Positions 1-16,331 of a DNA stretch of 64,000 nucleotides are shown one piece after another. The translations under genes and the position numbers were made by a program. Numbering within the stretch: position 1 is the stretch's first letter; each line of letters opens with the position of its first letter. Origin of the DNA: Candidatus Latescibacterota bacterium (GTDB lineage Bacteria > Latescibacterota > UBA2968 > GCA-2709665). The notes beneath the pieces were generated by a model that did no database searches, was not told where the DNA came from, and worked only from the letters and a program-made list of their open reading frames with translations. The DNA lies in the NCBI GenBank assembly GCA_965237675.1, contig OZ250150.1, positions 3,936,001 to 4,000,000 of the forward strand, read 5' to 3'.

Positions 1-2
1 TG

Positions 3-2885
3 TCCGCCCTCACGTTCTTTCTTGGAGCCGTGTTACGTCGGCAGGCTGCAGTGACGGTGCTGACCATCGCGTATGTCCTGATTGTACTCTTGTTTCTCGG
101 ACGCCGATACGGGGGCATTTACGATTTCGGCGCATTTTTCGCCCCCGTGTTCTATTCGGATATGCTCGGGCTTGGCGACATCCGGCGGGTTGTGGAAATC
201 CGGTTCTTCTACATGATGGTTGCCATGTTTTTCTTCGGTCTGTCAATCGACAGGTATCCGCGCCTGCCGCAATCCAGGTCCTGGCGCAGGTTTGGCCGGT
301 GTCTGACCGCGGGCGGTTTCGTCGCCGCGCTGGGGTTGTTCCTTTATATGGAGAATCTGGACGCGACCGACCTCGACTACAGGTCGGCGCACCTGGAATT
401 TCAGGAAAGATACGCCGAACAGCCAACGGTTGCAGTAACGCATTACACCCTCGATCTGGACCTGGCGACCGACCGGGCGCCGCTGCTTGGCAGGGCGGTC
501 CTGCAAGTCTTGAACCCTCATCCCATACCCCTGGATACCCTGGTTTTCAGTCTCAACCCGGGATTGCGTTTGCGGTCTGTGGGCACACAGCAGGAAGGGG
601 GCGTTAATGTCAACTGGCGTCGCGATTTCTCAACCGTGCGGGTCGTGCGCCAACTGCAACCCGATAGTCTGGCTACACTGGTTTTTGTATACGACGGGTG
701 GATTGATCGCAGCGGATTCGACCTGAGGCGTCATCCGGACACAAGGCGTCTGCAAAAAAGGCGTTCGGGGCCGGGAACAAAAGGTGATCTGACCGCCTGG
801 ATTCACCACGATTCCGTATTTCTGCCGCCTCGCAGCCGGTGGTATCCCACGCCGGGCGTGGATTACGGCCATCAGGATGGCAGACCCTTTTCCTTCGCAA
901 CGGCAGACCTCAACATTTCTCTTCCCGCCGGGCTGGAAATTGCAACCCAGGGTGTGCCGGTTAACAGAGAACAACTGCGTAAACGGGAGATCCATACATG
1001 GAAAGTGGAAACCCCGGTACCCGTTCTTTCGCTCAATGCCGGCGTCTATCGTGTTTTTCGGGCTCGAATTCATGATATCGACTGTGCTATTTATGTGCAT
1101 CCGGCCCACGCCAGGCAGGTCACCTTTTTCGAAGACGCAAAAGATGACGCCATTAAAACCCTGGGCGAAATCCTGGATAGCGTTGAGCAGGAGACCAGTC
1201 TGGCTTACCCCTATCAACGGCTTTCGGTAGTGGAGGTGCCATTTCAGATACAATGGTATTACGACGGATGGGAGGAAGCGGGTGGATTGGTACAGCCCGG
1301 CGTGCTGATGCTGGAAGAGGATGTCCTGATGCGGTTGAAGTTACGCCAGCGGCTGAAGTGGATGCAGCGGCGGCAACGGCGAAACGACGACCCGTCGCGA
1401 GTCAAGCGGGATCTGCTGGTCAGCACGGTCCTGAACACGTTTCTCGCGAGGGAATCGGCTCAGAGTGGAATATATCGGAGTCCTGTTGCGCAACTCTGGT
1501 CGTTCAACAAGGGATTCGAAGGCGAACACTATTCCCTGCTCAAGCGCGGAATGCCAGTCTATATGCAGAAGCATCTCGGAACCAATTTACAGCAGACGTT
1601 CTATTCGCGGCGGGGCCGGTTTCGCGGGCGGTTCCGGCGAGAAAGAGGCGTGGGCGGCGTCTCGTGGGATACGATAACCACACGGATGCGGCAGCGTTCC
1701 TTCGCGGAACTGGACCCGAGCGGCGAAGCGGAACTCTACCGCGCGGTCGTCGACGCCAAGGGCGCCTCCATGTTCGGCATGATGCAGGCGGTGGTGGGGG
1801 ACGAGTCATTCCGGGATGTGGTGAGCGGGTTCGATGAGGCGAATCGACACGTCGGGGTTGACTTCGCTTCGTTTGAACAGGCGGCGATCGGGGATTCCTC
1901 ACGCCAGGTGAACAGGCCCATCCTGAATCGCCTGGTCCGCGACTGGCTGCACGGTACGCAGGTGCCGGGATACACACTGACACGGGCAAAAGCATATAAG
2001 GTGGACGATGGGTGGGGTATGCTGACGTATCAGGTCATTGTGCGGATCCGAAACGGTGAACCCGGGCGCGGGTTTGTCCAGATTCGAGCGATGGGCAACG
2101 AGGACGAGGCCGTAAAGGGAGTCGAGATAGAGGGCGGGCAGGAAGTGGAGGTGGGGTTGATCCTATGGGAACGGCCCTTAAGGTTGAGTGTCGAGCCATT
2201 CTTTGCACGCAACCGACGCGTCCTGATGGCGCCGTTGCGAATTCCCGAACAGCCGATGGACGGGTCTGCCACGACCTACGTGAGGGAGGTTGCCCCGGAC
2301 GAGACCGGATTGACGGAGATCATCGTGGACAACGATGATGAAGGATTCGAGATGCCGGTCCGCAGAGTGCGGCGTTATTTGAGGCCGCATTTGAAGGGCG
2401 ACAACTGGCAGGAGCGCCAGATGCCGTTTGCCTTCGGCCGGTATGAGAACAACTTCCGATGGAAGAAACCCGGCGACGGCGCGCAACCCGCCGTTTGGAC
2501 CGCAAGGTTGCCGCACAGCGGGGATTACGATGTCTACTATTTTTTCGTTCCTTACAGGTTTTCAAGGCGTCTGCGCATGGCATCCGAGTTCAATCTGGCC
2601 GTCTTTCACGGTGAGGCGGTGGATACACTGGCAGTCGAAGCACGCGAACTGAAGGCGGGCTGGAACGTCCTGGGTCGTTATCGGTTCGAGCAGGGGGAAC
2701 TGGCACGCGTCGAATTGTCGGACCGTGCCAATGGGCGCCTGTACGCCGACGCGGTGCGCTGGAGGTACGTCGATCCGGACCATCCCGAGGAGGTATATGA
2801 AGAGGAACTCCCCACTTGGAACTTCGGCCGCCGCCGCAGGGGTGACCGGAGCGGGCGGGAACAAAGGCGCGGAGGACAATGGTAA
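3..2885 (+). CDS. ABC-permease/M1-aminopeptidase-like membrane protein with C-terminal golvesin/xanthan-lyase-CBD-like domain (5'-truncated by window edge)
   Basis: Frame open from position 3. N-terminal TM helices; M1-like segments (VTHYTLDLDL, FSLNPGL, YPYQRLSVVEVP) with no HEXXH. C-terminal IIVDNDDEGF...WTARLPHSGDYDVY...YADAVRW resembles the golvesin C-terminal domain. Confidence 0.7.
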   Translation, partial: SALTFFLGAVLRRQAAVTVLTIAYVLIVLLFLGRRYGGIYDFGAFFAPVFYSDMLGLGDIRRVVEIRFFYMMVAMFFFGLSIDRYPRLPQSRSWRRFGRCLTAGGFVAALGLFLYMENLDATDLDYRSAHLEFQERYAEQPTVAVTHYTLDLDLATDRAPLLGRAVLQVLNPHPIPLDTLVFSLNPGLRLRSVGTQQEGGVNVNWRRDFSTVRVVRQLQPDSLATLVFVYDGWIDRSGFDLRRHPDTRRLQKRRSGPGTKGDLTAWIHHDSVFLPPRSRWYPTPGVDYGHQDGRPFSFATADLNISLPAGLEIATQGVPVNREQLRKREIHTWKVETPVPVLSLNAGVYRVFRARIHDIDCAIYVHPAHARQVTFFEDAKDDAIKTLGEILDSVEQETSLAYPYQRLSVVEVPFQIQWYYDGWEEAGGLVQPGVLMLEEDVLMRLKLRQRLKWMQRRQRRNDDPSRVKRDLLVSTVLNTFLARESAQSGIYRSPVAQLWSFNKGFEGEHYSLLKRGMPVYMQKHLGTNLQQTFYSRRGRFRGRFRRERGVGGVSWDTITTRMRQRSFAELDPSGEAELYRAVVDAKGASMFGMMQAVVGDESFRDVVSGFDEANRHVGVDFASFEQAAIGDSSRQVNRPILNRLVRDWLHGTQVPGYTLTRAKAYKVDDGWGMLTYQVIVRIRNGEPGRGFVQIRAMGNEDEAVKGVEIEGGQEVEVGLILWERPLRLSVEPFFARNRRVLMAPLRIPEQPMDGSATTYVREVAPDETGLTEIIVDNDDEGFEMPVRRVRRYLRPHLKGDNWQERQMPFAFGRYENNFRWKKPGDGAQPAVWTARLPHSGDYDVYYFFVPYRFSRRLRMASEFNLAVFHGEAVDTLAVEARELKAGWNVLGRYRFEQGELARVELSDRANGRLYADAVRWRYVDPDHPEEVYEEELPTWNFGRRRRGDRSGREQRRGGQW

Positions 2886-2929
2886 TTAACTGCGTATCAA
2901 GGGCATATAACTTTTTGGTGAGGTTTGTT

Positions 2930-4006
2930 TTGAATCGACGATTTTCTGAATTCTGGGTGCTATTCAGCGCTGTTTCCGTGCTGTCCGGTTGCGGCGGGCA
3001 AACCGAGCAGCGGTCCGTGGATCTGACAGTTCCGGTAACGGTTCAGGCTGTGAGGCTGGATACAATGGAGGCGACGGTGGCCGCCACGGGCACGCTCCGC
3101 TCCATAAAAGAGGCTCGAATTCAAACTGAGGTCGAGGGCATTATTCGATTTGTCGGCCGGGACGGTTGGGGAAGGCCAACCGAAGGCTTGCGGGTTTCCC
3201 GAAACCAGGTGATTGCCAGCCTGGTGAACAAGGAGCTTGTTGTGAACGCCCGGCTGGAATCCCGGGAGCTTGCGCGGGCCACTGCGAAGCGAACGCTGCG
3301 CGAACAGGAGGTACTTGTTGAGCGCAAGCTGAGCACACGGAGAGATCTGGAAGAAGCACGCCACGCCCTTGCCGAAGCCGAATCAAACTATGAAGACGCC
3401 ATCGTTCAGATCGCCAAGACAACGATTCGGACACCTATCGCCGGGTTTTTGACGGGCCTGGCCGATATTACCGAAGGTACACTGGTCGACGCCCGTACGA
3501 CCATCGCGACGGTGATGGATTACAGCCAGGTACTCGTCGATCTCAAAATACCGAATGCCTATATTTCTTCGGTGATGCCGGGCCAGGTTGTGCGAGTGGA
3601 GAACTATGCGTTGCCCAACCGACTGTTCTTTGGCACCATCAAGGTGGTGGACCCGGCCATCGATCCGACGACCCGTACGTTCCGGGTGGTGGGGGCCGTG
3701 GAAAACTCGAACCTGATGTTGCGACCGGGCATGTTCGTGACGGCGGAGATTGTGACGGAGTCACACGAAAACGCCGTGGTCATTCCGCGTCGCTATGTCC
3801 TGACCCGTCAGAATCGCAAGGTCGTGTTCGTTGAAGAGGAGGGGAGGGCGCAGATGCGCAACGTGGAACCGGGGTTGGAGGGGCCGGAGTTGGTCGAAAT
3901 CCTGGAAGGTCTTGAACCTGGAGAGCGCCTGATTACCAGCAACTACGAGACCCTGCGGCCCCGAACGCGCGTCCGGGTAACCGGTGCGGGAGTGCCAGGG
4001 CGGTAA
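2930..4006 (+). CDS. RND efflux periplasmic adaptor (membrane fusion protein), probable lipoprotein
   Basis: MFP motifs (TPIAG, IDPTTRTF, LRPGMF, GLEPGERLI). TTG at 2930 after GAGG gives a lipobox LSGC about 20 aa in; alternative ATG at 2879. Confidence 0.9.
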   Translation: MNRRFSEFWVLFSAVSVLSGCGGQTEQRSVDLTVPVTVQAVRLDTMEATVAATGTLRSIKEARIQTEVEGIIRFVGRDGWGRPTEGLRVSRNQVIASLVNKELVVNARLESRELARATAKRTLREQEVLVERKLSTRRDLEEARHALAEAESNYEDAIVQIAKTTIRTPIAGFLTGLADITEGTLVDARTTIATVMDYSQVLVDLKIPNAYISSVMPGQVVRVENYALPNRLFFGTIKVVDPAIDPTTRTFRVVGAVENSNLMLRPGMFVTAEIVTESHENAVVIPRRYVLTRQNRKVVFVEEEGRAQMRNVEPGLEGPELVEILEGLEPGERLITSNYETLRPRTRVRVTGAGVPGR

Positions 4007-4244
4007 TGAACACGAGCGCCGGTCGTCCGCGGTCCGAGGAATGGTACCGGCTTGAAAAATCCCATCTGCGCCGATATATCAACGCAAAACACAGTGTGAG
4101 TTCTGAATTGAAGCCCTCTGGGACGCACGGACCGCGTATGCCCCTTCCGGAGGGTCCTTTTTAGGCCTGCGGGTCGGGAAGCGCATTCGCACGAGCAACC
4201 AGCGATAAGACACCTGGCCACATCCTTTTCAAAGAGTTGAATCG

Positions 4245-7200
4245 ATGTCATTGCCCGAATTTTCGACAAAGTATCCCGTGACGGTTGCGATGGCCACGCT
4301 GGCGGTAGCGCTCCTGGGTTGGATCTCGCTGGCGCGGCTGGACGTGGATCTGTTGCCCGACCTGCGTTCTCCCGTGATAACCGTCGATTTGCGTTTTCCG
4401 GGAAAGACGCCCATGGAGATGGAAGAGCGTTACGCGCGAAGGCTCGAAGGGGATATCGGTACGGTCCGCCACGTCAAACGTGTACATTCCGTGTCTCGCT
4501 CCGGACAAGCCGTGGTGATCGCGGAATTTGAATGGGATGCGGATATGGATTTCGCCCTGCTCGATGTACAAAAGAAAGTGGGGCGGTACGCAGCGGATCC
4601 CGATATCACGAGTCTGGACGTTACACAGGAAGACCCCCATGCGCTGCCGGTGATGCGTCTGGCCGTCTACGGAGCGGATTGGCAGGATCCGGACGAACTG
4701 CTGGGTAGCGTGGAAACGGTGATCAGGCCGAAACTGGAAGGGTTTCCGGGGGTGGCTTCAGTCGAAATCGAAGGGGGGGCCGAGAAAGAGATTCGTGTCA
4801 CGCTGGATTCCTATCTCCTGGAGGCCTTTGGCGTTGGTTCCGAAACGGTCGTCTCGAGGATTCGTGAGGCGAATGCGGATGTCTCCGGGGGAACGTTGAA
4901 GGATGGGCAACGTACCTATCTGGTCAAGGGTCTGGGACGTCTGACCGATTTGCAGGACGTGAACAACCTGGTGGTGGGCGAGCGCAGGGGCGGCGCCACC
5001 AACGGCCAGGAAGACGCCCCCACCCAGCGCGTACCCGTCACCGTGGCCGATGTGGGCACTGTGGCGTTACGTTACATGGAGCGGGAAACCATTGTGCGCC
5101 TCGATGGTATGGAGTGCGTGGGCCTTTCCGTATACAAGGAAGCGGGCGCGAATACGTCGGCGGTGGTCAACGGGGTTCTTCGAGAATTGGAAGGCCTGGA
5201 GGCAGATCTGGCGGGCGTCCGGTTTACCGTGGTGGAGAATCAGGCACGCTTTGTCGAGCGAGCGGTAAACGAAGTGGAAGAAGCGGCCGTGCTCGGCGCG
5301 TTGCTGGCCCTTGGCGTGCTGCTGGCTGCGCTCCGGCAGTGGACGGCCACACTGGTCATCGGCCTGGCCATTCCAATTTCCGTACTGGCCACCTTCACGC
5401 TGATGTACTTCCAGGGTTTGACGTTGAATGTGATGACCCTGGGCGGGTTGGCGCTAGGCGCTGGCATGCTGGTTGACAATGCCATTGTGGTGATTGAAAA
5501 CATCTACCGGCATATCGAACGGGGAGAAACAGCCGCCGAAGCCTCCATCCGAGGTGCGGGCGAGGTCGGTGTGGCCATTCTGGCTTCCACACTTACCACG
5601 GTGTCCGTGTTTCTGCCCATCGTCTATCTTCACGGGTTGGCCGGCGAACTCTTCAAGGAGCAGGCGTGGACGGTCGCGTTTTCGCTGATTTCGTCTCTGG
5701 TGGTGGCCATGACGCTGGTCCCGATGTTGACCGCCCGTCTCTTCAGGCGGTTTCCTCGCCGAGCCCCCAGAGCCGCTGGATCAGCCATATTCGGACGATT
5801 TCTGGCAGCATCACTCAACCGTAAGGGCCGCACGATGGCAGTGCTTGTCGCCTTTCTTCTGGCCGCTGTGTACATGGCCCGGTCCATCCATACGTCTTTT
5901 ATTCCCAGGGAAGACGAGGGTGTACTTCACGTGGCCCTCGCGCTGCCGGAGGGCACAAGGCTCGAGTCCACGGACAGGGTGGCGAGACGCGTTGCCGCAA
6001 TCACACAGGCGGTCGCCGGAGAGGAAGCCCTGCACATCTACCTCCGCGCGGGAACCGATTCGAACCGGCTGACGGCCGTGGGCGAACCCTCCGGCCCAAA
6101 CAGGGCCGAGTTGACGGTGGTGCTGGCGCAGCGAACGGACCGCCGTAGTGTCTCCGAACTGACCACCGCGCTGGATACGGCCATTCGGGAAGTGCCGAAT
6201 ATCAAGGTCAACTATCGACTTCAAAAGGCTGCATTAGAAGGACTTATCCGAGGAGATGCCGCTCCGGTTCAAGTCGAGGTGAGCGGCGAGAACCTGGCGT
6301 TACTTCGGGAATTGACGGCAGATCTGAAACGGCGCATGGCGGGGTTGCGCACGGTATATAACGTGCGAACGAGCTTTCAGGATGGTCAGCCCGAAGTGGA
6401 CGTGGTGTTGCGGCCGGACGTCACAGCGGCGTTTGGCCTGACCGCGGAGAATCTGGTGCGCGAACTCGGGCGGAGGCTGGGAGGCGAGATAGTCGGGGAA
6501 CTCTCCAAGGACCAGCGGGCGCGAACCATCCGGGTGGGTTTCGAAGATTTGGATCTTCGTGCGTTGAAACACGCGAGAATTGACGGCCCCGACGGTGCAA
6601 TGCTCACTCTGGGAGATCTCGCCGACCTGCGGGTGGTCCATGGGCCACGGGAGATATTGCGCGACGGGCAGCGTCGGGTGGGCAGGGTATCGGCTTACCT
6701 GACCGAAGGGGTGGTATTGAGCCAGGCGGCGACGCAGATCAGACAGGCGGTGGAACAGATGGCCATTCCGCACGGGTACCGGTTGACGGTTACTGGCGAG
6801 GAACGGGAACGGGCCGAGTCGTTTGCCGGTCTGCAATTCGCCCTGTTACTGTCGGTTGTGCTCGTCTATATGGTAATGGCTTCGCTTTTCGAGTCTTTAC
6901 TCCATCCGTTTACCGTGATGCTGACGGTGCCGCTGGCAGGCATCGGGGTCGTGTTCGCATTTTGGAGTCTTGGAGAGGCGTTTGGCGTGATGGCGTTCAT
7001 CGGAGCGATTATGCTGGGAGGTATCGCCGTGAACGACGCCATTATTCTGGTGGACCGGATCAACCAGCTCCGGCGCGATACGGGCGACTTGAGGACGGCC
7101 GTTCTCCAGGGGGCACAGGATCGGCTGCGTCCGATCCTGATGACCAGCGCCACAACCATTCTGGCGCTGTTGCCCATGGCGGTGGGGGTTGGGGAGGGAG

Positions 7201-7328
7201 CCCGGCTCAGGGCGCCGATGGCGGTGGCGGTTATCGGCGGGTTGGTGACGTCCACGCTGATGACGCTTGTGGTGATTCCGGTCGTTTACGAATTGATCGA
7301 ACGGGTCAGAATCAGGAGGGCGCCGTGA
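4245..7328 (+). CDS. RND efflux permease (AcrB/AcrD/AcrF family)
   Basis: 1027 aa; GMLVDNAIVVIENI, MASLFES, RLRPILMT motifs; two large periplasmic loops. Confidence 0.95.
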   Translation: MSLPEFSTKYPVTVAMATLAVALLGWISLARLDVDLLPDLRSPVITVDLRFPGKTPMEMEERYARRLEGDIGTVRHVKRVHSVSRSGQAVVIAEFEWDADMDFALLDVQKKVGRYAADPDITSLDVTQEDPHALPVMRLAVYGADWQDPDELLGSVETVIRPKLEGFPGVASVEIEGGAEKEIRVTLDSYLLEAFGVGSETVVSRIREANADVSGGTLKDGQRTYLVKGLGRLTDLQDVNNLVVGERRGGATNGQEDAPTQRVPVTVADVGTVALRYMERETIVRLDGMECVGLSVYKEAGANTSAVVNGVLRELEGLEADLAGVRFTVVENQARFVERAVNEVEEAAVLGALLALGVLLAALRQWTATLVIGLAIPISVLATFTLMYFQGLTLNVMTLGGLALGAGMLVDNAIVVIENIYRHIERGETAAEASIRGAGEVGVAILASTLTTVSVFLPIVYLHGLAGELFKEQAWTVAFSLISSLVVAMTLVPMLTARLFRRFPRRAPRAAGSAIFGRFLAASLNRKGRTMAVLVAFLLAAVYMARSIHTSFIPREDEGVLHVALALPEGTRLESTDRVARRVAAITQAVAGEEALHIYLRAGTDSNRLTAVGEPSGPNRAELTVVLAQRTDRRSVSELTTALDTAIREVPNIKVNYRLQKAALEGLIRGDAAPVQVEVSGENLALLRELTADLKRRMAGLRTVYNVRTSFQDGQPEVDVVLRPDVTAAFGLTAENLVRELGRRLGGEIVGELSKDQRARTIRVGFEDLDLRALKHARIDGPDGAMLTLGDLADLRVVHGPREILRDGQRRVGRVSAYLTEGVVLSQAATQIRQAVEQMAIPHGYRLTVTGEERERAESFAGLQFALLLSVVLVYMVMASLFESLLHPFTVMLTVPLAGIGVVFAFWSLGEAFGVMAFIGAIMLGGIAVNDAIILVDRINQLRRDTGDLRTAVLQGAQDRLRPILMTSATTILALLPMAVGVGEGARLRAPMAVAVIGGLVTSTLMTLVVIPVVYELIERVRIRRAP

Positions 7329-10300
7329 TTCTCCCCGATCTTGCCGTCCGGAGGCCGGTAACGACGTCCATGTTTTTCTCCGCATTGGCCATATTGGGTG
7401 TCGTGTCTTGGACCCGGCTTCCGGTACAGCTCTTTCCGGAGCTGATTTTTCCGGAAGTCTTCGTCACGCTCACGCTGCCCGGAGCGACTCCGGAACAGGT
7501 TGAAAGGGATCTGGTGATTCCGGCCGAAGGGGAGATTGGCAAGCTTGACGGGGTCCAGGAGATGGAGTCGTTTGCGATGGCAAATATGGGTGGCGTAAGG
7601 ATATCCTATGCCCCGGACGTGGATATGAAATTCGCCCTGCTTCAGCTCCAGAGCAACCTGAACAGATTACAGCCGACACTGCCCGAACGATCGCAAACTG
7701 ATGTACGGAGGTTTGATTCGACAGATCTGAGCAGCATCATCATGGAGCTTCACGTACTTGCCGATTGGGATCTGAACCAGCTCCGGGAGTTCACCGAGGA
7801 AAAGATCCGTCCTGAACTGGAGTCTATAGACGGTGTCGTGAATGTGTCCGTTATGGGTGGGCGGCGCAGTGCCGTGGAAATTGTCCTGGATCCGTTCCTG
7901 CTCGAGGCGCATGGACTTTCGACCGGACAGGTACGGGAACGCCTGAACAACTACAACCGGCGACGGGAATACCTGGGTCGCGTATATGACGGGAACAGGG
8001 CCTATTCGGTGAGCATTCAGGGACAGTTTACGGATCTGCGCCAGATCCGTAATCTGGTGTTGAACACGGACGGCACCCTCAGACTGGGCGACGTATCCCG
8101 GGTGGGATACGGACTGCAGGAACAGGCCGATCGTCACAGAGTCAACGGCAAACCTTCGGTGGGGGTCCGAATCCAGAAAGACGACGAAGCGAATCTGATC
8201 GAGGTGGCCGCGGCCGTCGAAGCGGCCATTGGCCGGCTGAATCGGGATTTCAAAGGCGAGGGCGTGGAATTGGGCGTGAGTTCGTCTCAGGCGGATCTGA
8301 TGTCCGGGGCGCTATCCACTCTGAAACAGGCGGCCATTGTAGGCGCTGTCCTCGGACTGATCGTGCTTTTTCTGTTTCTTCGAAACTTTCGTTTTGTCTC
8401 GGTCCTCCTGCTGGCCATTCCGGTTTCTCTTCTGATGACCTTTAATCTGATGTACCTGGGCGGGCTATCCGTAAACGTCCTGTCCCTTTGCGGCCTTGCC
8501 CTCGCGATGGGAATGCTTGCCGACAACGGCATTGTCGTGATGGAGAATATCTTCAAGCATTACGAGCGTGGAAAATCCCCTGTCCATGCAGCGCGTGACG
8601 GGGCGGCTGAGGTCGGGCGCGCGGTGGTCGCGGCAACCGCAACCACGGTAACCGCTTTTTTGCCTGTTTTGTTTATCGAGAGCGACGCGCGGGACCTGCT
8701 CCGTGAACTGGCGTTGTCCATGGCGTTTCCTCTTATGGCCTCCCTGCTGGTGGCGCTGACACTCGTACCGGCCCTGGCGGTGCGGGCACTGAGCCGCGAG
8801 GTCCGGCGACCACCCGATGTCCGTGGCTTGCTGGAACGGTATACGCTGTTGTTGAAAGCCGCCCTGCGGCACCGCGCGTTGGTGGCCCTGTCCGTAGGAG
8901 GTGCCCTTACACTGACACTCGTCGTGGCCTTCTATTACCTGCTTCAGCAGCAGGTACGGAGAGAGGAAACGCGATTTACGGTCTATGTGAACCTGCCGGA
9001 AGGGGCCACGCTGGATGCTACCGATGAAGTCGCGAAACAGGTGGAAGAATCTGTGCGTGACGTTCCCGGGCTGGATCGATTCACAACGTCGGTTCGGGAG
9101 GCGGAATCCAGCGTTACTGTCTTGCTGGAAGATCGGTCTGACCGGCCCGGCGACATCTCACTGGATGAAATCAAAGAACAACTCGACGAAAAACTGCAGA
9201 ACGTACAGGGCGGCGTGGTAGGGTACGAGCCCAGGCCACGGGCGGGGAGGGGCGGTCGTGGGCAGGGAATAGGACAGCGTCGGAGACGCAGTTCGGGTGG
9301 ATTCGATCTGACCGGGGCCACCCCGAACGAGCAGGCCGTGGTTCGAGGATACGACTTCACTTTACTGACAATGATTGCCAACGACGTGGTGTACCGCCTC
9401 GAGGAACTGGAGGAGGTCGACGCCAACAGCGTCCGCGCGGACGCCGAACGGAGTTCGCCCGAGGTTCAGGTGATACCCGATGCGGCGGCTCTGTTCGACA
9501 GGCAGCTTGGGACACGGGAGGTGTTGGCCGCAATGGGTGATACCCGTTGGGACGGTTTCCGTACCACCGTACCGTTTCTCCTGCCCGACGCAACCGAGAT
9601 ACCCATTGAAGTGCGTACAATTGAAGAGGAGGACCGGGACCGGTACGGGCTGGCTGAATTCAAGCGCTCCCGCATTCTCAACCAGGTCGGGCAGTACGTG
9701 TCTCTGGACGAAGTCGCGCGTGTTCGAACGGATGAAGGCAGGAGCAACCTGTTGAGGACCGACCAGGCCCGTCGGATCGTGGTTTCGTACCGGTTTCCTT
9801 CGGAAATTCTCGATTCACAACCGCGGTTGGAGACCGCGAGACGTGTCGTACGGACGACTCTTCAGGATATGGTGCTGCCGGAGGGCTATTCGATCGAAAT
9901 AACAGAGGCACAGGAGGAGACGATTTACTATTGGATGATGGGAGTTGCCGCGGTGCTCATCTACATGATTCTGGCCTCGCTGTTTGAATCTTTCGCGTCT
10001 CCGGTCATCATTCTGTGTACGCTACCACCCGCGGCCATTGGTTCCTGTTGGGCGCTGATGATGTCGGGTACGGGTCTGAGCCAGCAGGAGGGGCCCATGG
10101 CGCTGCTGGGCTTTGTTGTCCTGCTGGGCATTGCCGTGAATAACGGGATTATCCTGATCGATGCAGTCGGCGTGCTCAGGTCCCGATTCGGTTATCGCCG
10201 GGAACGCGCGGTATTGGCGGCGGCACGGTCCCGGGTACGACCGATATTGATGACGACGGCCACAACGCTTCTGGGCGTCCTACCGCTCGCTCTGGTATTC

Positions 10301-12037
10301 GGAGGCGACTTTGAAATCTGGCCGCCGTTTGCAATCACCGTTCTGGGCGGGTTGTCGGTTTCCATGGTGTCCACACTGATCCTGATTCCGGTCGTTTACA
10401 TGGGGCTGGACCAGATCGGAGCCTGGCTGGCCGATATGGGGTTTATCGGCGTCACTCTCTCACTGCTGGCTACAGCGGCGGCCGGCTATGGCGTATATAC
10501 CCGGTATGACAGCGTCTTCTGGGCGGCCCTGTCGATATTGCCTATCTGGGTTGTGTTCTTGTCAGCGGTGTGGATCGTACTGAAGGTCCATCGCGCTCGA
10601 GTGTCCGCCCGTCGCGTGGCGGACGCCGTGTATTCCATTCAGTTGCGGAATCTGACGAAGACCTACGGCGCGCCCGGGCGATTTGCACGCGAGTGGGCGC
10701 GAAGCGAACGTCGGAGAGGGCGGTTGATGGAAACGGGGTTGGATCCGCAGGACCGCAAGGCGGTCCGGGATACTCTTTTCTGGAAGCTGCCGTTACTCGC
10801 CCTGTTGCTGTTTTTTGCGGCCTATTTCGAGGATGAAATCTGGATCTATCTGCACGGGGTGGCGCTGGCCTTTATGCTGGCCCATGTGGGTCAATGTTTC
10901 GGCGCCCTCTGGCGCGGGCAAACGTCGGCACCGGTCACTCGCATCGGCGACTTTCTTCGTAAAGTGGTTCTGCCACTGGGATTTCTGGCCTATGTGCACT
11001 GGCGGCTGAACCTGCTTTCCGTCACGATTGCATCGTTCGGGTTGTGGGTTGTCTATCGTCTGGCGCGGCGGCTCGCGAACAGGGTGCGGACGGGCAAGGT
11101 AAACCCCGACGAAATGTCCGGACGGGTTGGATGGGCACGCCGATGGGTCTATCGGATGGCATCGGCCTTACCTCTTATAGGGGTTCCCCGGCCGGCATTT
11201 CGGGCGCTGGCGGGCGTCAACCTGGAGATTGGCAGGGGGATGTTCGGTCTCTTGGGCCCGAATGGCGCCGGTAAGACCACGTTGATGCGTATTCTCTGCC
11301 GGGTTCTCGAGCCCAGCTGCGGGTCAATTCTGATCGATGGTCGAAACATCCTGAGAAGGGGTTCGATTCATGGGCTGATCGGGTATCTTCCGCAGCACTT
11401 CGGTAACTATGGACATCTTTCCGCATACGAATTCCTGGAATACCGGGCGCTGCTGGAAGGCTTTAAGGACCGAAAAACCCGGGAGACGCGGGTGATCGAG
11501 TCTCTGGAACAGGTCAATCTGATCGAGCGGAAGGAAGATCCGATCGGATCCTTCTCCGGTGGCATGAAGCAGCGCCTGGGCATCGCGCAGACCCTGTTGC
11601 ACACTCCGCTGATCGTGGTCGTGGACGAGCCCACTGCGGGGCTCGACCCGCTGGAGCGCATCCGGTTTCGCAACCTGCTCGCCCGTTTGAGCCAGGATCG
11701 GATCGTCATTTTTTCCACGCACATCGTGGAAGACATCTCAGGAAGCTGCAATCGACTGGCGGTACTGGATCAGGGGCGCCTACTGTATACCGGAACGCCA
11801 CAGGAGATGAGAAACCTGGCAGAGGGACGGGTGTGGGATGCGGTTGTGCCGGACCGGCGCTTTTCCGAACTCGAAGAAAAACTGAAGCTCGTAACGCATC
11901 AGCGAACGTCAGCCGGGGTCCGAATGCGATTCTTGTCCGATCGCCCACCGGTTGGCGTCGGCGCGCAGAGCGCGGATCCAACGCTTGAAGACGCTTATCT
12001 TTACCTTCTTGGCAGGGGAAAGGAACAGCCGTGCTGA
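7325..12037 (+). CDS. RND permease fused to C-terminal ABC ATPase domain (about 1570 aa)
   Basis: GTG at 7325 overlaps the upstream TGA, with SD AGGAGG. RND motifs GMLADNGIVVMENI and RVRPILMT, then Walker A GPNGAGKTT, Q-loop YLPQ, signature FSGGMKQR, Walker B/D-loop VVDEPTAGLD, H-loop STH. Confidence 0.9.
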   Translation: MILPDLAVRRPVTTSMFFSALAILGVVSWTRLPVQLFPELIFPEVFVTLTLPGATPEQVERDLVIPAEGEIGKLDGVQEMESFAMANMGGVRISYAPDVDMKFALLQLQSNLNRLQPTLPERSQTDVRRFDSTDLSSIIMELHVLADWDLNQLREFTEEKIRPELESIDGVVNVSVMGGRRSAVEIVLDPFLLEAHGLSTGQVRERLNNYNRRREYLGRVYDGNRAYSVSIQGQFTDLRQIRNLVLNTDGTLRLGDVSRVGYGLQEQADRHRVNGKPSVGVRIQKDDEANLIEVAAAVEAAIGRLNRDFKGEGVELGVSSSQADLMSGALSTLKQAAIVGAVLGLIVLFLFLRNFRFVSVLLLAIPVSLLMTFNLMYLGGLSVNVLSLCGLALAMGMLADNGIVVMENIFKHYERGKSPVHAARDGAAEVGRAVVAATATTVTAFLPVLFIESDARDLLRELALSMAFPLMASLLVALTLVPALAVRALSREVRRPPDVRGLLERYTLLLKAALRHRALVALSVGGALTLTLVVAFYYLLQQQVRREETRFTVYVNLPEGATLDATDEVAKQVEESVRDVPGLDRFTTSVREAESSVTVLLEDRSDRPGDISLDEIKEQLDEKLQNVQGGVVGYEPRPRAGRGGRGQGIGQRRRRSSGGFDLTGATPNEQAVVRGYDFTLLTMIANDVVYRLEELEEVDANSVRADAERSSPEVQVIPDAAALFDRQLGTREVLAAMGDTRWDGFRTTVPFLLPDATEIPIEVRTIEEEDRDRYGLAEFKRSRILNQVGQYVSLDEVARVRTDEGRSNLLRTDQARRIVVSYRFPSEILDSQPRLETARRVVRTTLQDMVLPEGYSIEITEAQEETIYYWMMGVAAVLIYMILASLFESFASPVIILCTLPPAAIGSCWALMMSGTGLSQQEGPMALLGFVVLLGIAVNNGIILIDAVGVLRSRFGYRRERAVLAAARSRVRPILMTTATTLLGVLPLALVFGGDFEIWPPFAITVLGGLSVSMVSTLILIPVVYMGLDQIGAWLADMGFIGVTLSLLATAAAGYGVYTRYDSVFWAALSILPIWVVFLSAVWIVLKVHRARVSARRVADAVYSIQLRNLTKTYGAPGRFAREWARSERRRGRLMETGLDPQDRKAVRDTLFWKLPLLALLLFFAAYFEDEIWIYLHGVALAFMLAHVGQCFGALWRGQTSAPVTRIGDFLRKVVLPLGFLAYVHWRLNLLSVTIASFGLWVVYRLARRLANRVRTGKVNPDEMSGRVGWARRWVYRMASALPLIGVPRPAFRALAGVNLEIGRGMFGLLGPNGAGKTTLMRILCRVLEPSCGSILIDGRNILRRGSIHGLIGYLPQHFGNYGHLSAYEFLEYRALLEGFKDRKTRETRVIESLEQVNLIERKEDPIGSFSGGMKQRLGIAQTLLHTPLIVVVDEPTAGLDPLERIRFRNLLARLSQDRIVIFSTHIVEDISGSCNRLAVLDQGRLLYTGTPQEMRNLAEGRVWDAVVPDRRFSELEEKLKLVTHQRTSAGVRMRFLSDRPPVGVGAQSADPTLEDAYLYLLGRGKEQPC

Positions 12038-12753
12038 ACTGGCATGAATTGCTGCTGACCTGGTGGCGGCTCTATCGGCTTAGCTGCAGAATCATATTTC
12101 ACAGGAAATTGATGTTCATGGCTATTGGTGTTCTCGTTTATTACGCTGCCATGTATGCATTTGCGGTCTGGCGGCCCAGCGAAGGATTCGGCGTATCGCG
12201 GGCGCTCAATGTTCTGGTTGAAATTCCCGGCATCGCCCTGGCCATTTATCTGACGATGGATCTGGTTGCGGGCGAACGAGATAGAAATACACTGGAAACG
12301 CTGTTCAGTACCACGTCGTCCCACTATAAGATCTGGGCGATTCGTATGCTCGGAGTCTATTTCGTGTTGGCGGCCACCCTGATGGGTATGACGGTGGTTG
12401 CCTATTTTGTTTTCGCGGAGTTGCCTATCTTTTGGGGCGGGCTGAATGCTTTTCTGCCTGCGTGCCTTGCCGCGGGGCTCACTTTTTATTTTTCTGTTCT
12501 CTGTCGAAGCGGCAATGCGGCCGCGATGCTCGCTACGGGAGTGATGGGCCTGACTGTGTTCATCTCGGAATCCATGCCAGATTCACCCTTCGCGCTTTTT
12601 CTGAGTACGTTTGATCCCCCGGTGGGAATGGAAGGCACCCTTTGGGGCGACCAGATGCTGCTGAATCGCCTGGGTGTAATATTGCTGTCGGGTTTGCTGC
12701 TTTTTATGGGCCTCCGGAAGATGGAAGCCAGGGAGCGATTGGTTTCTTCCTGA
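12031..12753 (+). CDS. ABC-2 type transporter permease
   Basis: About 6 TM helices; GERDRNTLETLF coupling-helix motif; overlaps the end of the ATPase fusion gene. Confidence 0.8.
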   Translation: MLNWHELLLTWWRLYRLSCRIIFHRKLMFMAIGVLVYYAAMYAFAVWRPSEGFGVSRALNVLVEIPGIALAIYLTMDLVAGERDRNTLETLFSTTSSHYKIWAIRMLGVYFVLAATLMGMTVVAYFVFAELPIFWGGLNAFLPACLAAGLTFYFSVLCRSGNAAAMLATGVMGLTVFISESMPDSPFALFLSTFDPPVGMEGTLWGDQMLLNRLGVILLSGLLLFMGLRKMEARERLVSS

Positions 12754-12920: not shown

Positions 12921-13505
12921 TCACTCAGATTCCCATTCGTTTGGAATCGAACAACTGTTTTGGGCGGCCCAGCGACGTGCCTGCTCGTAAAAGTCCTTAA
13001 ACGAACCTGATCCAGCAATCCAAGATCTCAATGATGTTGTTGAAACGTAGTTGCAGACTCGTGCTTTTCCCAGTTCTTTGTCACGTCCAGTCAACCCGAA
13101 TCTCCGCTTTACAAAATCAGAAGGGTTGTCCCTCGGTATCTCTTCCTCCTTACATTCCAGTTCGCGGGCAAGCGAGCCCCGGTCAATTGCCAGCCACCAT
13201 TCTATATTTTGGTCAGCCACGCCAAATACGGTCAGATGACGGAGATTTTCGGGAATCCGAGCGCCCTCGCGATTTTTGACCTCACGCCAGGGATTGTTAT
13301 CGGCATCCGTCAACACAACCAGTATGTTACATCCTTCATGGCTATTTAAGACCTGGAGATTCTTGGCAATCTCTCGCCTGTGAGATTCCTTCGACCCACC
13401 TCGATATCGCCCCGGTGCCAACTCCGCAGCAGGACACCAGCGTTCTTTCAGCCCCCGGACGACTGCTTCATCCATATCCCCCTGGACATAAAATCCAATC
13501 TTCAT
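12921..13505 (-). CDS. TOPRIM-like DUF4276/RloB-like partner of AAA ATPase
   Basis: MKIGFYVQGDMDE start, LTDAD (DxD), NIEWWL; 4-bp overlap with the ATPase gene. Confidence 0.6.
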   Translation of the reverse strand: MKIGFYVQGDMDEAVVRGLKERWCPAAELAPGRYRGGSKESHRREIAKNLQVLNSHEGCNILVVLTDADNNPWREVKNREGARIPENLRHLTVFGVADQNIEWWLAIDRGSLARELECKEEEIPRDNPSDFVKRRFGLTGRDKELGKARVCNYVSTTSLRSWIAGSGSFKDFYEQARRWAAQNSCSIPNEWESE

Positions 13506-14689
13506 CCCAACAACCCCCGAAAATGCTGTTCTCCCAGCGGGAATTGTTCAAGGCGCGCCTTCAGATTATCGATATTCGGTTGCGAAATTGAAGTGTGCTG
13601 TTCGTCGCGATTAAGCACAAAGACCGCATCCAAATATTGATCGAATAGATCGATAAAATACGGTGCATGCGAGGTAAAAACGACCTGAGGGCCTTGCGAC
13701 TGTTCGATCAATTCGAACAAGGATTTCAATAAACCGACATAAATTCCATTTTCCGGCTCTTCAATTATTAACAACGGTCGGGTATCAACGATTGGCTGCA
13801 TCAACAAAACATAGGTTAGGGCCAAGAATCGCAACGTGCCACTCGATGCACTCCATGCTGGGTATGCACTCCGGTCTGCATATTCGAAAATCATGTTCAC
13901 TTGGTTTGAAAAAACCTCAAAGTTGATTAGTTCAAGTCTTGGGTCCACTTCTTTTATTACATTCAGAAGCTGGCGATAATCCCACTCCCGGGACGTTTTT
14001 AGCCTGTAGAGTAACGAGGCGAGATTGCTGCCATCGCGAGCGAGGACGACTTCATTTGGGTTGTGTTCCGACGACCTCATTGCAATAGGGGATAGATCAT
14101 AAGAGCACCAAGTGCTCAAATAACGTTTAAAGTGATTAGCCCGTGCATTCGAATCCGAATCATAGAGCCGCTGCAGCATCGTTGTATCTGCGGGTGGGCT
14201 TGCCTCAACATAGTTCTCAGTTCCATCAATGAAATCCTTCTCATGCAAAAGGCGAATCCGACCATTGGAATGATGGAGCAGGGCAGTTTGATCGAATTTT
14301 CCGCCGGTAACGATCAATTTCTCTCGGGTAACTCTAATTGTAGATTCTTCTCCAGAAAAAGCATTCGTACTAATAGAGAACCCCGGTAGCGATATCGTCA
14401 GTTCATATTCAAATGTGTGAACATCGTGCATAAAGGGAACATCTGCTCGCAGATAGAAATCTATGGTTTGTTTATTAAACGCGAAATTCGTCAAACCAAA
14501 TCGCCAACTTTGGATCAAAGACACGCAATCGTCTAGCTTCAAGACAGAACTAGCAGCAACAAACTGCAATGCCTGGCAGAGATTGGTCTTTCCGGAGTTG
14601 TTTTTCCCTATAATTAGATTGATTTGACGCGGCTCAAATACAATATTAATCAAAGACTTAAAATTATCGACGCGAAATTCTTTCAACAT
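13502..14689 (-). CDS. AAA_21/ABC-like ATPase (AbiEii/PARIS/AbiL-type)
   Basis: MLKEFRVDNFKSL start after GGAGG; Walker A GKNNSGKTN, SSGTLR, Walker B LLIIEEPENG, FTSHAP. Confidence 0.85.
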   Translation of the reverse strand: MLKEFRVDNFKSLINIVFEPRQINLIIGKNNSGKTNLCQALQFVAASSVLKLDDCVSLIQSWRFGLTNFAFNKQTIDFYLRADVPFMHDVHTFEYELTISLPGFSISTNAFSGEESTIRVTREKLIVTGGKFDQTALLHHSNGRIRLLHEKDFIDGTENYVEASPPADTTMLQRLYDSDSNARANHFKRYLSTWCSYDLSPIAMRSSEHNPNEVVLARDGSNLASLLYRLKTSREWDYRQLLNVIKEVDPRLELINFEVFSNQVNMIFEYADRSAYPAWSASSGTLRFLALTYVLLMQPIVDTRPLLIIEEPENGIYVGLLKSLFELIEQSQGPQVVFTSHAPYFIDLFDQYLDAVFVLNRDEQHTSISQPNIDNLKARLEQFPLGEQHFRGLLG

Positions 14690-14762
14690 TACAAGCCTCC
14701 TAAACAGACGTGGCCTGAACAGTGGTTTTGCCAATAGATGGTAACATAAGACCCACATGGCC

Positions 14763-15077: not shown

Positions 15078-16220
15078 CTATTCTTTGCGTACATCCAACC
15101 GGACCTTGCGGGGTTCTACCTTTACGACCGTCAGATCCGTCCCGTGTGTTATCGACTCGGTGTCAAACTCGAAGGTTCTGCGTCCGTACCTGACGTAGGC
15201 GGCATCGATAACGAGGCTGAAGTCCACCACAGACGCCAGTAGCAGGGCGCGTCGTGTTCCCTTTACGGTTACGCTCACCGCGGGGGGTTTGACGCCCTCC
15301 AGCGAGTATCCCTGTGGTAAGTTCTCCACACTGACACCCACCTCGTACGTCGTTTCCTGCACCGCCGCGCCGGGTACCAGCAACATCCATGCACCGAAGG
15401 CCAGCGCGAAGGAGAGCAGCCCTTCGCCGAGATGCCGGGCCAGCCGGCCGCGCTGGATCCGGCCCGCACCGACCACCGCGTGCTGAACGTGCTCCTGTAA
15501 CCTGGCCAGCAATTCGTCAGGATCGTCTATAGTCTCCAGTCGACCCTGCCGCGCGACGGCGATGGTGCCGCGCTCCTCGGAAACCACAATGCAAAGGGCG
15601 TCGCTGCGCTCGGCCAGCCCCAGTGCCGCGGCGTGGCGCGTGCCTCCCGGCCCGAGTTCGCCCCGGTTTTCCGAAAGCGGCAGATATACGGCAAAGCGCT
15701 CCAGCCTGTCTTCGCGCATCACCAGCGCACCGTCGTGGCCCGCCGATGTCGTGCCGAAAATGCTGTCGATGAGTTCCTCGCTAATGGTCGCTTGCAAGGC
15801 GATCCCGCCTTGTAAATACCGCTCCAGGGGCTCACGTCCGGGCAAAACCACCAGGGCGCCGCGTCGCCTCGCCACCAGCTGATGCATCGCTCGAACCAGG
15901 ACCGCCAGACTGCCACCGCGGGGCCTGGATACCCTCTGGCCCAGACCCAGTGCGGCGATCCGCTCGAAGAGCCGACGCAGGTCGTCTTGAAACACCACGA
16001 CGAGCAGTACGACGAGGACGGCGAAAAAACCTTGGAAAATCCACGCAGTCAGTTGCAGTTCGAATTGCCGCGCCAGCAGATAGAAAGCGCCGAGAAAAGC
16101 CAGCCCGATAAGCGCCATTCGGGCGTGCATCCTCCGAGTCCAGGCCAACAGGCCCCACAACAGGACGCCCACGACCACTATATCCACAAAATCCGTAAAT
16201 GCGATTTCAAGTAACGTCAT
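15078..16220 (-). CDS. Diadenylate cyclase (CdaA/DisA_N) fused to a YbbR/CdaR-like domain
   Basis: 3 N-terminal TM helices, VVVFQDDLRR, RRGALVV, HDGA, GTRHAAA; then a TM helix and YbbR-like VSVENLP...VSVTVKG domain. Confidence 0.85.
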   Translation of the reverse strand: MTLLEIAFTDFVDIVVVGVLLWGLLAWTRRMHARMALIGLAFLGAFYLLARQFELQLTAWIFQGFFAVLVVLLVVVFQDDLRRLFERIAALGLGQRVSRPRGGSLAVLVRAMHQLVARRRGALVVLPGREPLERYLQGGIALQATISEELIDSIFGTTSAGHDGALVMREDRLERFAVYLPLSENRGELGPGGTRHAAALGLAERSDALCIVVSEERGTIAVARQGRLETIDDPDELLARLQEHVQHAVVGAGRIQRGRLARHLGEGLLSFALAFGAWMLLVPGAAVQETTYEVGVSVENLPQGYSLEGVKPPAVSVTVKGTRRALLLASVVDFSLVIDAAYVRYGRRTFEFDTESITHGTDLTVVKVEPRKVRLDVRKE

Positions 16221-16302
16221 ATCCAATGATCTTCCGGCTGGCGAAATCAGTCGTTTGGGGGCGCGAGAATACCCAACGATGTGCGTCTTGCTCCTGGTCC
16301 GG

Positions 16303-16331
16303 AATATGGGCAAACTTTCACATTTCGTCAA
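16303..16331 (-). promoter_or_regulatory. Putative sigma70 promoter for the diadenylate cyclase
   Basis: Minus strand TTGACG-17 bp-CATATT. Confidence 0.45.

Follow-up and report, generated by a model that had tools for sequence, protein, structure and literature searches.

As usually taught, tripartite efflux is driven at the inner membrane either by a resistance-nodulation-division (RND) pump or by an ATP-binding cassette (ABC) pump. Here, we describe an operon of a Candidatus Latescibacterota bacterium in which the two meet in a single open reading frame (ORF), encoding an RND permease and an ABC ATPase, among genes for further parts of both machines. The operon lies at the beginning of a 64,000-nucleotide stretch of contig OZ250150.1 (GenBank assembly GCA_965237675.1, positions 3,936,001 to 4,000,000, forward strand), referred to below as the window. 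The fusion is a genuine, conserved gene; we propose, tentatively, that it tethers an ABC transporter to the RND pump that this transporter feeds.

Gene content of the operon

Five co-oriented genes, all on the + strand, were found within positions 1-12753 of the window (ORF list and Pfam matches). An earlier interpretation made from the letters of the window (the sequence-only reading) had described the same five, including the fusion, and ACR_tran and ABC_tran domains do lie in one frame. The first gene, PermA (1-2885, +), is cut by the window start, leaving the 3' 960 codons of a gene for 1125 amino acids (aa); the upstream sequence was read as well and places the gene start 492 bases before the window. 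PermA is preceded, outside the window, by NBD-A, a gene for a free 307-aa ABC ATPase (NBD, nucleotide-binding domain). The operon comprises six genes: NBD-A, PermA, MFP, RND-1, RND-2::NBD-B, and PermB. The ABC part, which had been described as one NBD with two permeases, must be revised, as the free NBD-A makes it two NBDs and two membrane subunits.

The MFP gene (membrane fusion protein, the periplasmic adaptor; 2879-4006, +) matched TIGR01730 RND_mfp with 181 bits (cut-off, 94.9) and HlyD_D23 with an E value of 1e-23, and its product is probably a lipoprotein, judging from an LSGC lipobox read from the sequence. RND-1 (4245-7328, +) is a complete RND permease of 1027 aa (Pfam ACR_tran, E = 7e-224). 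The fusion gene, RND-2::NBD-B (7325-12037, +), encodes 1570 aa with matches to ACR_tran (E = 8e-183) and ABC_tran (E = 1e-26) in a single frame. The last gene, PermB (12031-12753, +), encodes a 240-aa six-helix membrane subunit, probably of the ABC-2 type, with weak matches to ABC2_membrane_2 and ABC2_membrane_3 (19.7 and 17.3 bits, under the cut-offs).

The frame of the fusion is open from position 6962. The ACR_tran match begins just after a GTG at 7325, and this GTG overlaps the stop codon of RND-1 (GTGA) and is preceded by AGGAGG. Because of the position of the ACR_tran start, the GTGA overlap, and the AGGAGG, GTG 7325 was taken as the most likely start of the gene.

The genes had been called mostly overlapping, which is right for the other junctions, where genes overlap or nearly touch, and wrong for MFP and RND-1, which are separated by 238 bases (4007-4244); no other junction of the operon has a sizeable gap. 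In the closest relative (L033), the two genes likewise lie 237 bases apart. Promoter and terminator scans found sites no more numerous than in shuffled sequences, with none strong at 4007-4244.

Reality and distribution of the fusion

The fusion is a single conserved gene and not an artifact. The junction was checked against Logan assembled contigs of public runs: two contigs from one study, possibly the source of the assembly (X1 and X2), span 9800-11600 with 0 differences; one from a second study (X3) spans 10381-11290 with 0 differences; and one from a third (X5) spans 9838-10680 with 6 substitutions. No indel or joint was reported in these contigs of three studies; the sequence-only reading, which proposed read mapping across 10400-11300, had allowed for an assembly or frameshift error.

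The same reading had suggested searching for other fusions of the two domains and for their neighborhoods. Among the matches listed for residues 1020-1570 (proteins of 863-2748 aa), both PF00873 and PF00005 were present in 120/120 clusters, most of them 1540-1650 aa long and ranging from 39 to 100% identity; source names include Gemmatimonadota, Latescibacterota, Acidobacteriota, KSB1, and Krumholzibacteria. Within the phylum of the window, 82 of 168 species genomes have a match running from the linker that follows the RND domain through the ATPase. When 185,579 species genomes were scanned by pattern, 35 of the best 80 loci proved to be fused; the scan pattern included the NBD alignment, and the other 45 loci are plain NBD relatives. 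Fused loci occur in the cultured bacteria Prolixibacter bellariivorans, Draconibacterium mangrovi, Maribellus maritimus, Marivirga sericea, Marivirga tractuosa, Bacteroides sp. 224, and Parabacteroides massiliensis, and in metagenome-assembled genomes (MAGs) labelled Calditrichaceae, Gemmatimonadaceae, and Latescibacterota. At a 36th locus (L084, in a MAG labelled Prolixibacteraceae), the genes for the outer-membrane factor (OMF), RND-1, and the fusion are each represented by two to three adjacent BLAST pieces, which could be due to sequencing-error frameshifts or to a decaying cassette.

Unfused forms of the linker and NBD-B were considered and rejected, as the short matches look like fragments. 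One of them (P0147) starts with Met, but it comes from a contig of 2433 bases, and its cluster includes a 1567-aa member. No full-length unfused NBD-B with the linker was found in a search of 1.84 billion representatives.

Architecture of the fusion protein

The RND-2 domain (residues 1-1029; 7325-10411, +) covers positions 3-1019 of the 1021 in the ACR_tran profile and is 33% identical to RND-1. The last 541 residues were modelled with AlphaFold2 (AF2) from a 32-row alignment (mean predicted local distance difference test [pLDDT] score, 80.9); residue 1 of the model is residue 1030 of the protein. Two extra membrane helices, TM13-14 (10412-10633, +; model helices 2-32 and 35-70, and hydropathy), are followed by the first beta-strand of the ABC ATPase with its A-loop Tyr (IQLRNLTKTYG; 10634-10678, +; model strand 75-85). 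After this strand, the ATPase of the model is interrupted by an insertion (10679-11197, +) consisting of a cytoplasmic helix, four membrane helices (TM15-18), and a second cytoplasmic helix (model helices 90-107, 112-135, 142-167, 173-199, 202-226, and 240-251). The remainder of NBD-B and a C-terminal regulatory-type domain complete the protein (11198-12037, +). K1112 and Y1114 of the first strand are kept in 108/108 sequences.

The C-terminus of AcrB is cytoplasmic, as that of RND-2 presumably is. The modelled topology is self-consistent with this: TM13-14 would return the chain to the cytoplasm, and two plus four helices would keep both pieces of the ATPase on the side of the RND C-terminus.

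The 271-residue linker region gave 52 matches among the 1.84 billion representatives, all in the RND-2::NBD-B family; each is a full-length protein matching at the equivalent position or a short fragment. Its invariant residues (18-32 homologues) are S34, W37, R61, W95, W124, W144, G237, and Y247. The six linker helices were also considered as a cryptic ABC-2 membrane domain, a candidate that was discarded (hhalign probability, <2% against both PermA and PermB). In a fold search, NBD-B matched TM_1403, NosF, and the NBDs of ABCA. The same search of the C-terminal module found partners for the NBD part only, long ABCA alignments having a root mean square deviation (rmsd) of ~20 Å and not being meaningful for the helices.

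Motor residues

Conservation of motifs in the fusion protein was scored in 108 full-length sequences (107 homologues and the window protein). In NBD-B, every one of them (108/108) has the Lys of Walker A, the Gln of the Q-loop, SGG, the Asp-Glu of Walker B, and the His of the H-loop, and the motifs of NBD-A are canonical (GPNGAGKTT, LPQ, FSGGM, VDEPT, and STH).

Both RND domains match nearly the whole of ACR_tran (RND-1, 3-1020 of 1021), which places them with HAE-1-like permeases; the NCBIfam model RND_permease_2 gave 622 bits for RND-1 and 526 bits for RND-2, both under its cut-off of 1250 bits. Residues were compared with the AcrB relay (D407/D408/K940/R971). RND-1 has D411/N412 in TM4, N930/D931 in TM10, and R962 in TM11, each kept in 21/21 sequences. 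In RND-2, D400/N401 of TM4 and R972 of TM11 are each kept in 108/108, and TM10 has N939/N940 (N940 in 105/108) and no charge. The same pattern, D-N in TM4 and N-N in TM10, recurs in four RND paralogues that this genome encodes without a fusion and is for this reason not a sign of decay; the idea that RND-2 is a proton-dead subunit whose role ATP has taken over was dropped on the same ground. With invariant ATPase motifs, and with RND domains whose charged membrane residues are conserved and agree with those of unfused paralogues, both motors look active.

ABC subunits

NBD-A and NBD-B are 46% identical over the entire NBD and C-terminal domain (E = 1e-83) and are mutual best paralogues in the genome, the next best being 38%. 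PermA and PermB are each single copy in the genome; between the membrane domain of PermA and PermB, hhalign gave a weak, full-length homology (probability, 60%; E = 9e-5; 231 columns). PermA matches Pfam ABC2_membrane_3 barely above the cut-off (E = 1e-7, 31.8 bits against 31.6). Two NBDs and two ABC-2-type membrane domains would suffice for a single heteromeric transporter or for a pair of homodimers.

Hydropathy of PermA indicates six clear helices and a weaker, likely seventh, which would place its last ~830 residues in the periplasm. The AF2 model of this domain (18 rows; pLDDT, 79.2; predicted template modelling score [pTM], 0.75) matched the M1 aminopeptidases IRAP, ERAP1/2, and PepN in Foldseek (E, ~1e-22; TM-score, ~0.43; ~10% identity), and the C-terminus matched Golvesin_C (E = 4e-15). 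The description of this first gene as peptidase-like is correct with regard to the M1 fold and not with regard to the catalytic motifs: HEXXH and GXMEN are absent from PermA, and neither is among the invariant columns of an alignment of 18 PermA sequences. The M1-fold domain is probably devoid of peptidase activity.

In complex prediction, the C-terminal module of the fusion with PermB scored 0.70 (best control, 0.00), passing a mark that solved complexes reach in 116 of 157 cases and mismatched pairs in 2 of 215, although ABC-2 complexes of NBD and transmembrane domain have already been solved and the pass may merely reflect likeness to them. Contacts agreed between runs to at least 87%, with a partner pLDDT of at least 75. 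They join the Q-loop and helical subdomain of NBD-B to the N-terminal helix of PermB, its 85-96 loop, and its C-terminus; the loop region includes the invariant D84, E89, and F92. PermB is thus predicted to dock on NBD-B via the usual coupling-helix groove.

Conservation of the cassette

The order NBD-A, PermA, [OMF], MFP, RND-1, RND-2::NBD-B, PermB was found in 20/20 neighborhoods of the phylum; these include one (L051) in which the contig start hides NBD-A and PermB was not found with the queries used. The bracketed position is filled in 12 of the 20, where an extra gene of ~500 aa lies between PermA and MFP and is TolC-like (OEP) in 6/6 tested. No OMF is visible in the window, as the sequence-only reading had noted. 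The eight neighborhoods without an OMF in the operon are those of the nearest relatives of the window, in whose clade the in-operon OMF is lost; five OMF genes lie elsewhere in its genome.

In other phyla, fused loci with upstream sequence have RND-1 and MFP in 31/31 and an OMF in 30/31, the exception being a Latescibacterota locus. The end of PermA is visible in 29 of these 31, and the remaining two are cut by the contig start; PermB is present in 31/31 among loci with downstream sequence. The cassette order is found in cultured Bacteroidota, too. In two genomes (G084 and G091; loci L053-L055), the NBD-A orthologue lies far from the cassette in the chromosome yet is kept, at 67% identity.

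Neighboring genes

A gene with an L-PSP domain lies 92 bases upstream of the operon. The upstream region (L002:464-8486) encodes, together with this L-PSP-domain protein, a DMFA2_C/Laminin_G_3 protein, a homocysteine S-methyltransferase-like protein, a thiamine pyrophosphate (TPP) enzyme, and a DAO oxidoreductase. Downstream, a convergent two-gene island (12921-14758, -) has a low GC content (0.45-0.50 against ~0.59) and encodes a 418-aa AAA_21/AAA_15 ATPase and a 194-aa protein; the pair matches the PADLOC candidate defence system HEC-01 (HEC-01A, E = 1e-37; HEC-01B, E = 6e-7). A diadenylate cyclase CdaA-like gene (15078-16331, -) has DAC, CdaA_N, and weak YbbR domains.

Comparison with known systems

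The RND part is closest to MdtABC-TolC of Escherichia coli. An MFP gene followed by two adjacent paralogous RND permease genes is common to both (here in 20/20 loci), relatives of the window have a TolC-like OMF gene inside the operon, and MdtB (9lyq) is the best solved relative of RND-1 (E = 3e-100) and of RND-2. MdtB2C is a mixed RND trimer. The present system differs in that MdtC has no ATPase and the mdt operon no ABC genes, in that, with AcrB and MdtB as reference, TM4 has D-N in place of D-D and Lys is missing from TM10, and in that a heterotrimer would here follow by analogy.

With ABC-2 (type V) exporters, such as NosFY, Wzm-Wzt, TarGH, ABCA, and ABCG, the cassette shares six-helix membrane subunits, the fold of NBD-B with its C-terminal domain (TM_1403, NosF, and ABCA), and a predicted N-terminal interface helix and coupling loop in PermB. 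It departs from those exporters in its NBD, which four membrane helices split after the first strand and which is joined to an RND permease; in the M1-fold periplasmic domain that one of its membrane subunits bears; and in PermB, whose Pfam scores fall under the cut-offs.

MacAB-TolC resembles the cassette in having an ATPase-driven inner-membrane component encoded alongside an MFP and OMF. MacB, however, is a type VII ABC protein with a periplasmic domain of its own and needs no RND partner, whereas the MFP here is of the RND-adaptor type (TIGR01730), the MacA model matching with only E = 1e-9 (its cut-off being 342 bits); no MacB or FtsX family match was found among the operon proteins with Pfam and NCBIfam. 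The M1 aminopeptidases (PepN, ERAP1, and IRAP) share the fold of the periplasmic domain of PermA; PermA differs in its ~10% identity, its lack of HEXXH and GXMEN, and its fusion to an ABC-2 membrane domain. None of the known systems compared joins both transporter classes, and no characterized RND-ABC fusion system was found in a full-text literature search, which did not cover subscription journals.

Interpretation

The cassette is genuine, and we read it as vertically conserved and as probably serving envelope export. The tethering of an RND pump and an ABC exporter that the sequence-only reading had suggested stands as a reading: the fusion is real and conserved, and its operon combines components of RND and ABC-2 systems. 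The explanation that we favor, though tentatively and not as an established account, is that the fusion forms a covalent tether between a heteromeric ABC-2-type (type V-like) transporter and a heteromeric RND tripartite pump, which the transporter feeds.

By analogy with MdtB2C, RND-1 and RND-2 would assemble in one mixed trimer. One RND-2 per trimer would bring a single tethered NBD-B, to be paired with the free NBD-A, and such pairing would explain why the operon always has one free and one fused ATPase. With PermA and PermB as the two membrane halves, there would be one ABC transporter per RND trimer. This ATP-driven module would move substrate from the cytoplasm or inner leaflet to the periplasmic side, where the M1-like, zinc-less domain of PermA may capture it in its cavity; expulsion through the MFP and OMF (the OMF being encoded elsewhere in this genome) would fall to the proton-driven RND trimer. 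The two-step export route of the sequence-only reading is one that we, too, infer.

Several points weigh against a transporter that is tethered in order to feed the RND pump. In one genome (G083; locus L056), a further NBD-A/PermA pair lacks RND genes in its neighborhood and may act alone. Two of the best 80 loci of the genome-wide scan (L089:6521-10834 and L108:6539-10855) have a shorter fusion of 1437-1438 aa without the extra membrane helices, in the order PermB-like (L108 only), RND-1, PermA-like, fusion, OMF, which argues that these helices are not essential to the principle. The six extra helices lie outside the confident PermB contacts. Flanking genes vary among relatives, the flanking ORFs differing in size and none matching a cassette protein. 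The direction of hand-over, from ABC to RND, is a guess; a heterodimer and two homodimers are both compatible with the gene content, and the RND-1:RND-2 stoichiometry is argued by analogy. Architecture and conservation are shown; the transport steps built on them are putative.

A bolder version of the tethered transporter is a dual-energy exporter, in which the six-helix linker integrates a heterodimeric ABC-2 transporter (NBD-A/PermA and NBD-B/PermB) with a mixed RND trimer at a ratio of 1:1, and the binding and hydrolysis of ATP are mechanically coupled to the proton-driven RND cycle through gating, priming, or direct hand-over. We consider this unlikely as it stands.

About equally doubtful is that the ABC part works as a periplasmic loader. 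Through mechanotransmission like that of MacB or LolCDE, ATP would open and close the M1-fold domain of PermA, which would pass captured substrate from the periplasm or outer leaflet to the RND porter domain, with no translocation across the inner membrane. The M1 fold of ERAP and IRAP binds peptides within a closed cavity, and PermA would offer ~830 periplasmic residues with such a clamshell fold and no zinc site, encoded by a gene that adjoins those for the OMF and MFP. However, both membrane subunits probably belong to the ABC-2 type, whose known members translocate substrates across or out of the membrane; a MacB-type fold was not detected; and the periplasmic placement of the PermA domain depends on the weakly hydrophobic seventh helix.

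We give less weight to an RND pump that is gated or assisted by ATP, in which closure of the NBDs would be passed through the six-helix linker to the membrane domain of RND-2 and would prime, gate, or power its cycle, so that ATP and the proton-motive force are both drawn on. The covalent link runs from TM12 of RND-2 directly into the helices that flank and interrupt the ATPase, the linker has invariant residues and is unique to the family, and the TM10 acid that RND-1 keeps is missing in RND-2, all of which would suit such a pump. Yet the DN/NN pattern of RND-2 is shared by unfused paralogues, and the L089/L108 variant does without the linker helices. The ABC membrane subunits are always present in full, though an ATPase that drove the RND pump would have no need of them, and PermB is predicted to occupy the coupling groove of NBD-B.

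Equally improbable, in our view, is co-assembly only: an independent RND pump and one or two ABC-2 exporters with related but separate substrates, for which the fusion fixes stoichiometry or co-localization. Each module has every part that it needs, and the pair in G083 indicates that NBD-A/PermA is able to sit alone; against this stand the gene order kept across phyla, with ABC genes flanking the RND genes, and the search for unfused forms, in which no full-length NBD-B with the linker was found and short matches (e.g., P0147) looked like fragments. That assembly error or a frameshift joined two separate genes has practically no likelihood, being refuted by the conserved homologues and the independent contigs that span the junction.

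Significance

A family present in Latescibacterota, Gemmatimonadota, Calditrichota, and Bacteroidota welds an RND permease to an ABC ATPase, together with a full set of parts for both machines. The four-helix membrane insertion within an ABC ATPase is an unusual protein architecture in itself. The presence of the family in the cultured Marivirga tractuosa, Prolixibacter bellariivorans, Parabacteroides, and Bacteroides makes genetics and cryo-electron microscopy feasible. Should the dual-energy version be true, this would be the first pump with ATP and the proton-motive force in a single transport pathway. If the two machines are functionally coupled, the family would represent a new way to energize or feed transport across the cell envelope, and it raises the question of what substrate is carried.

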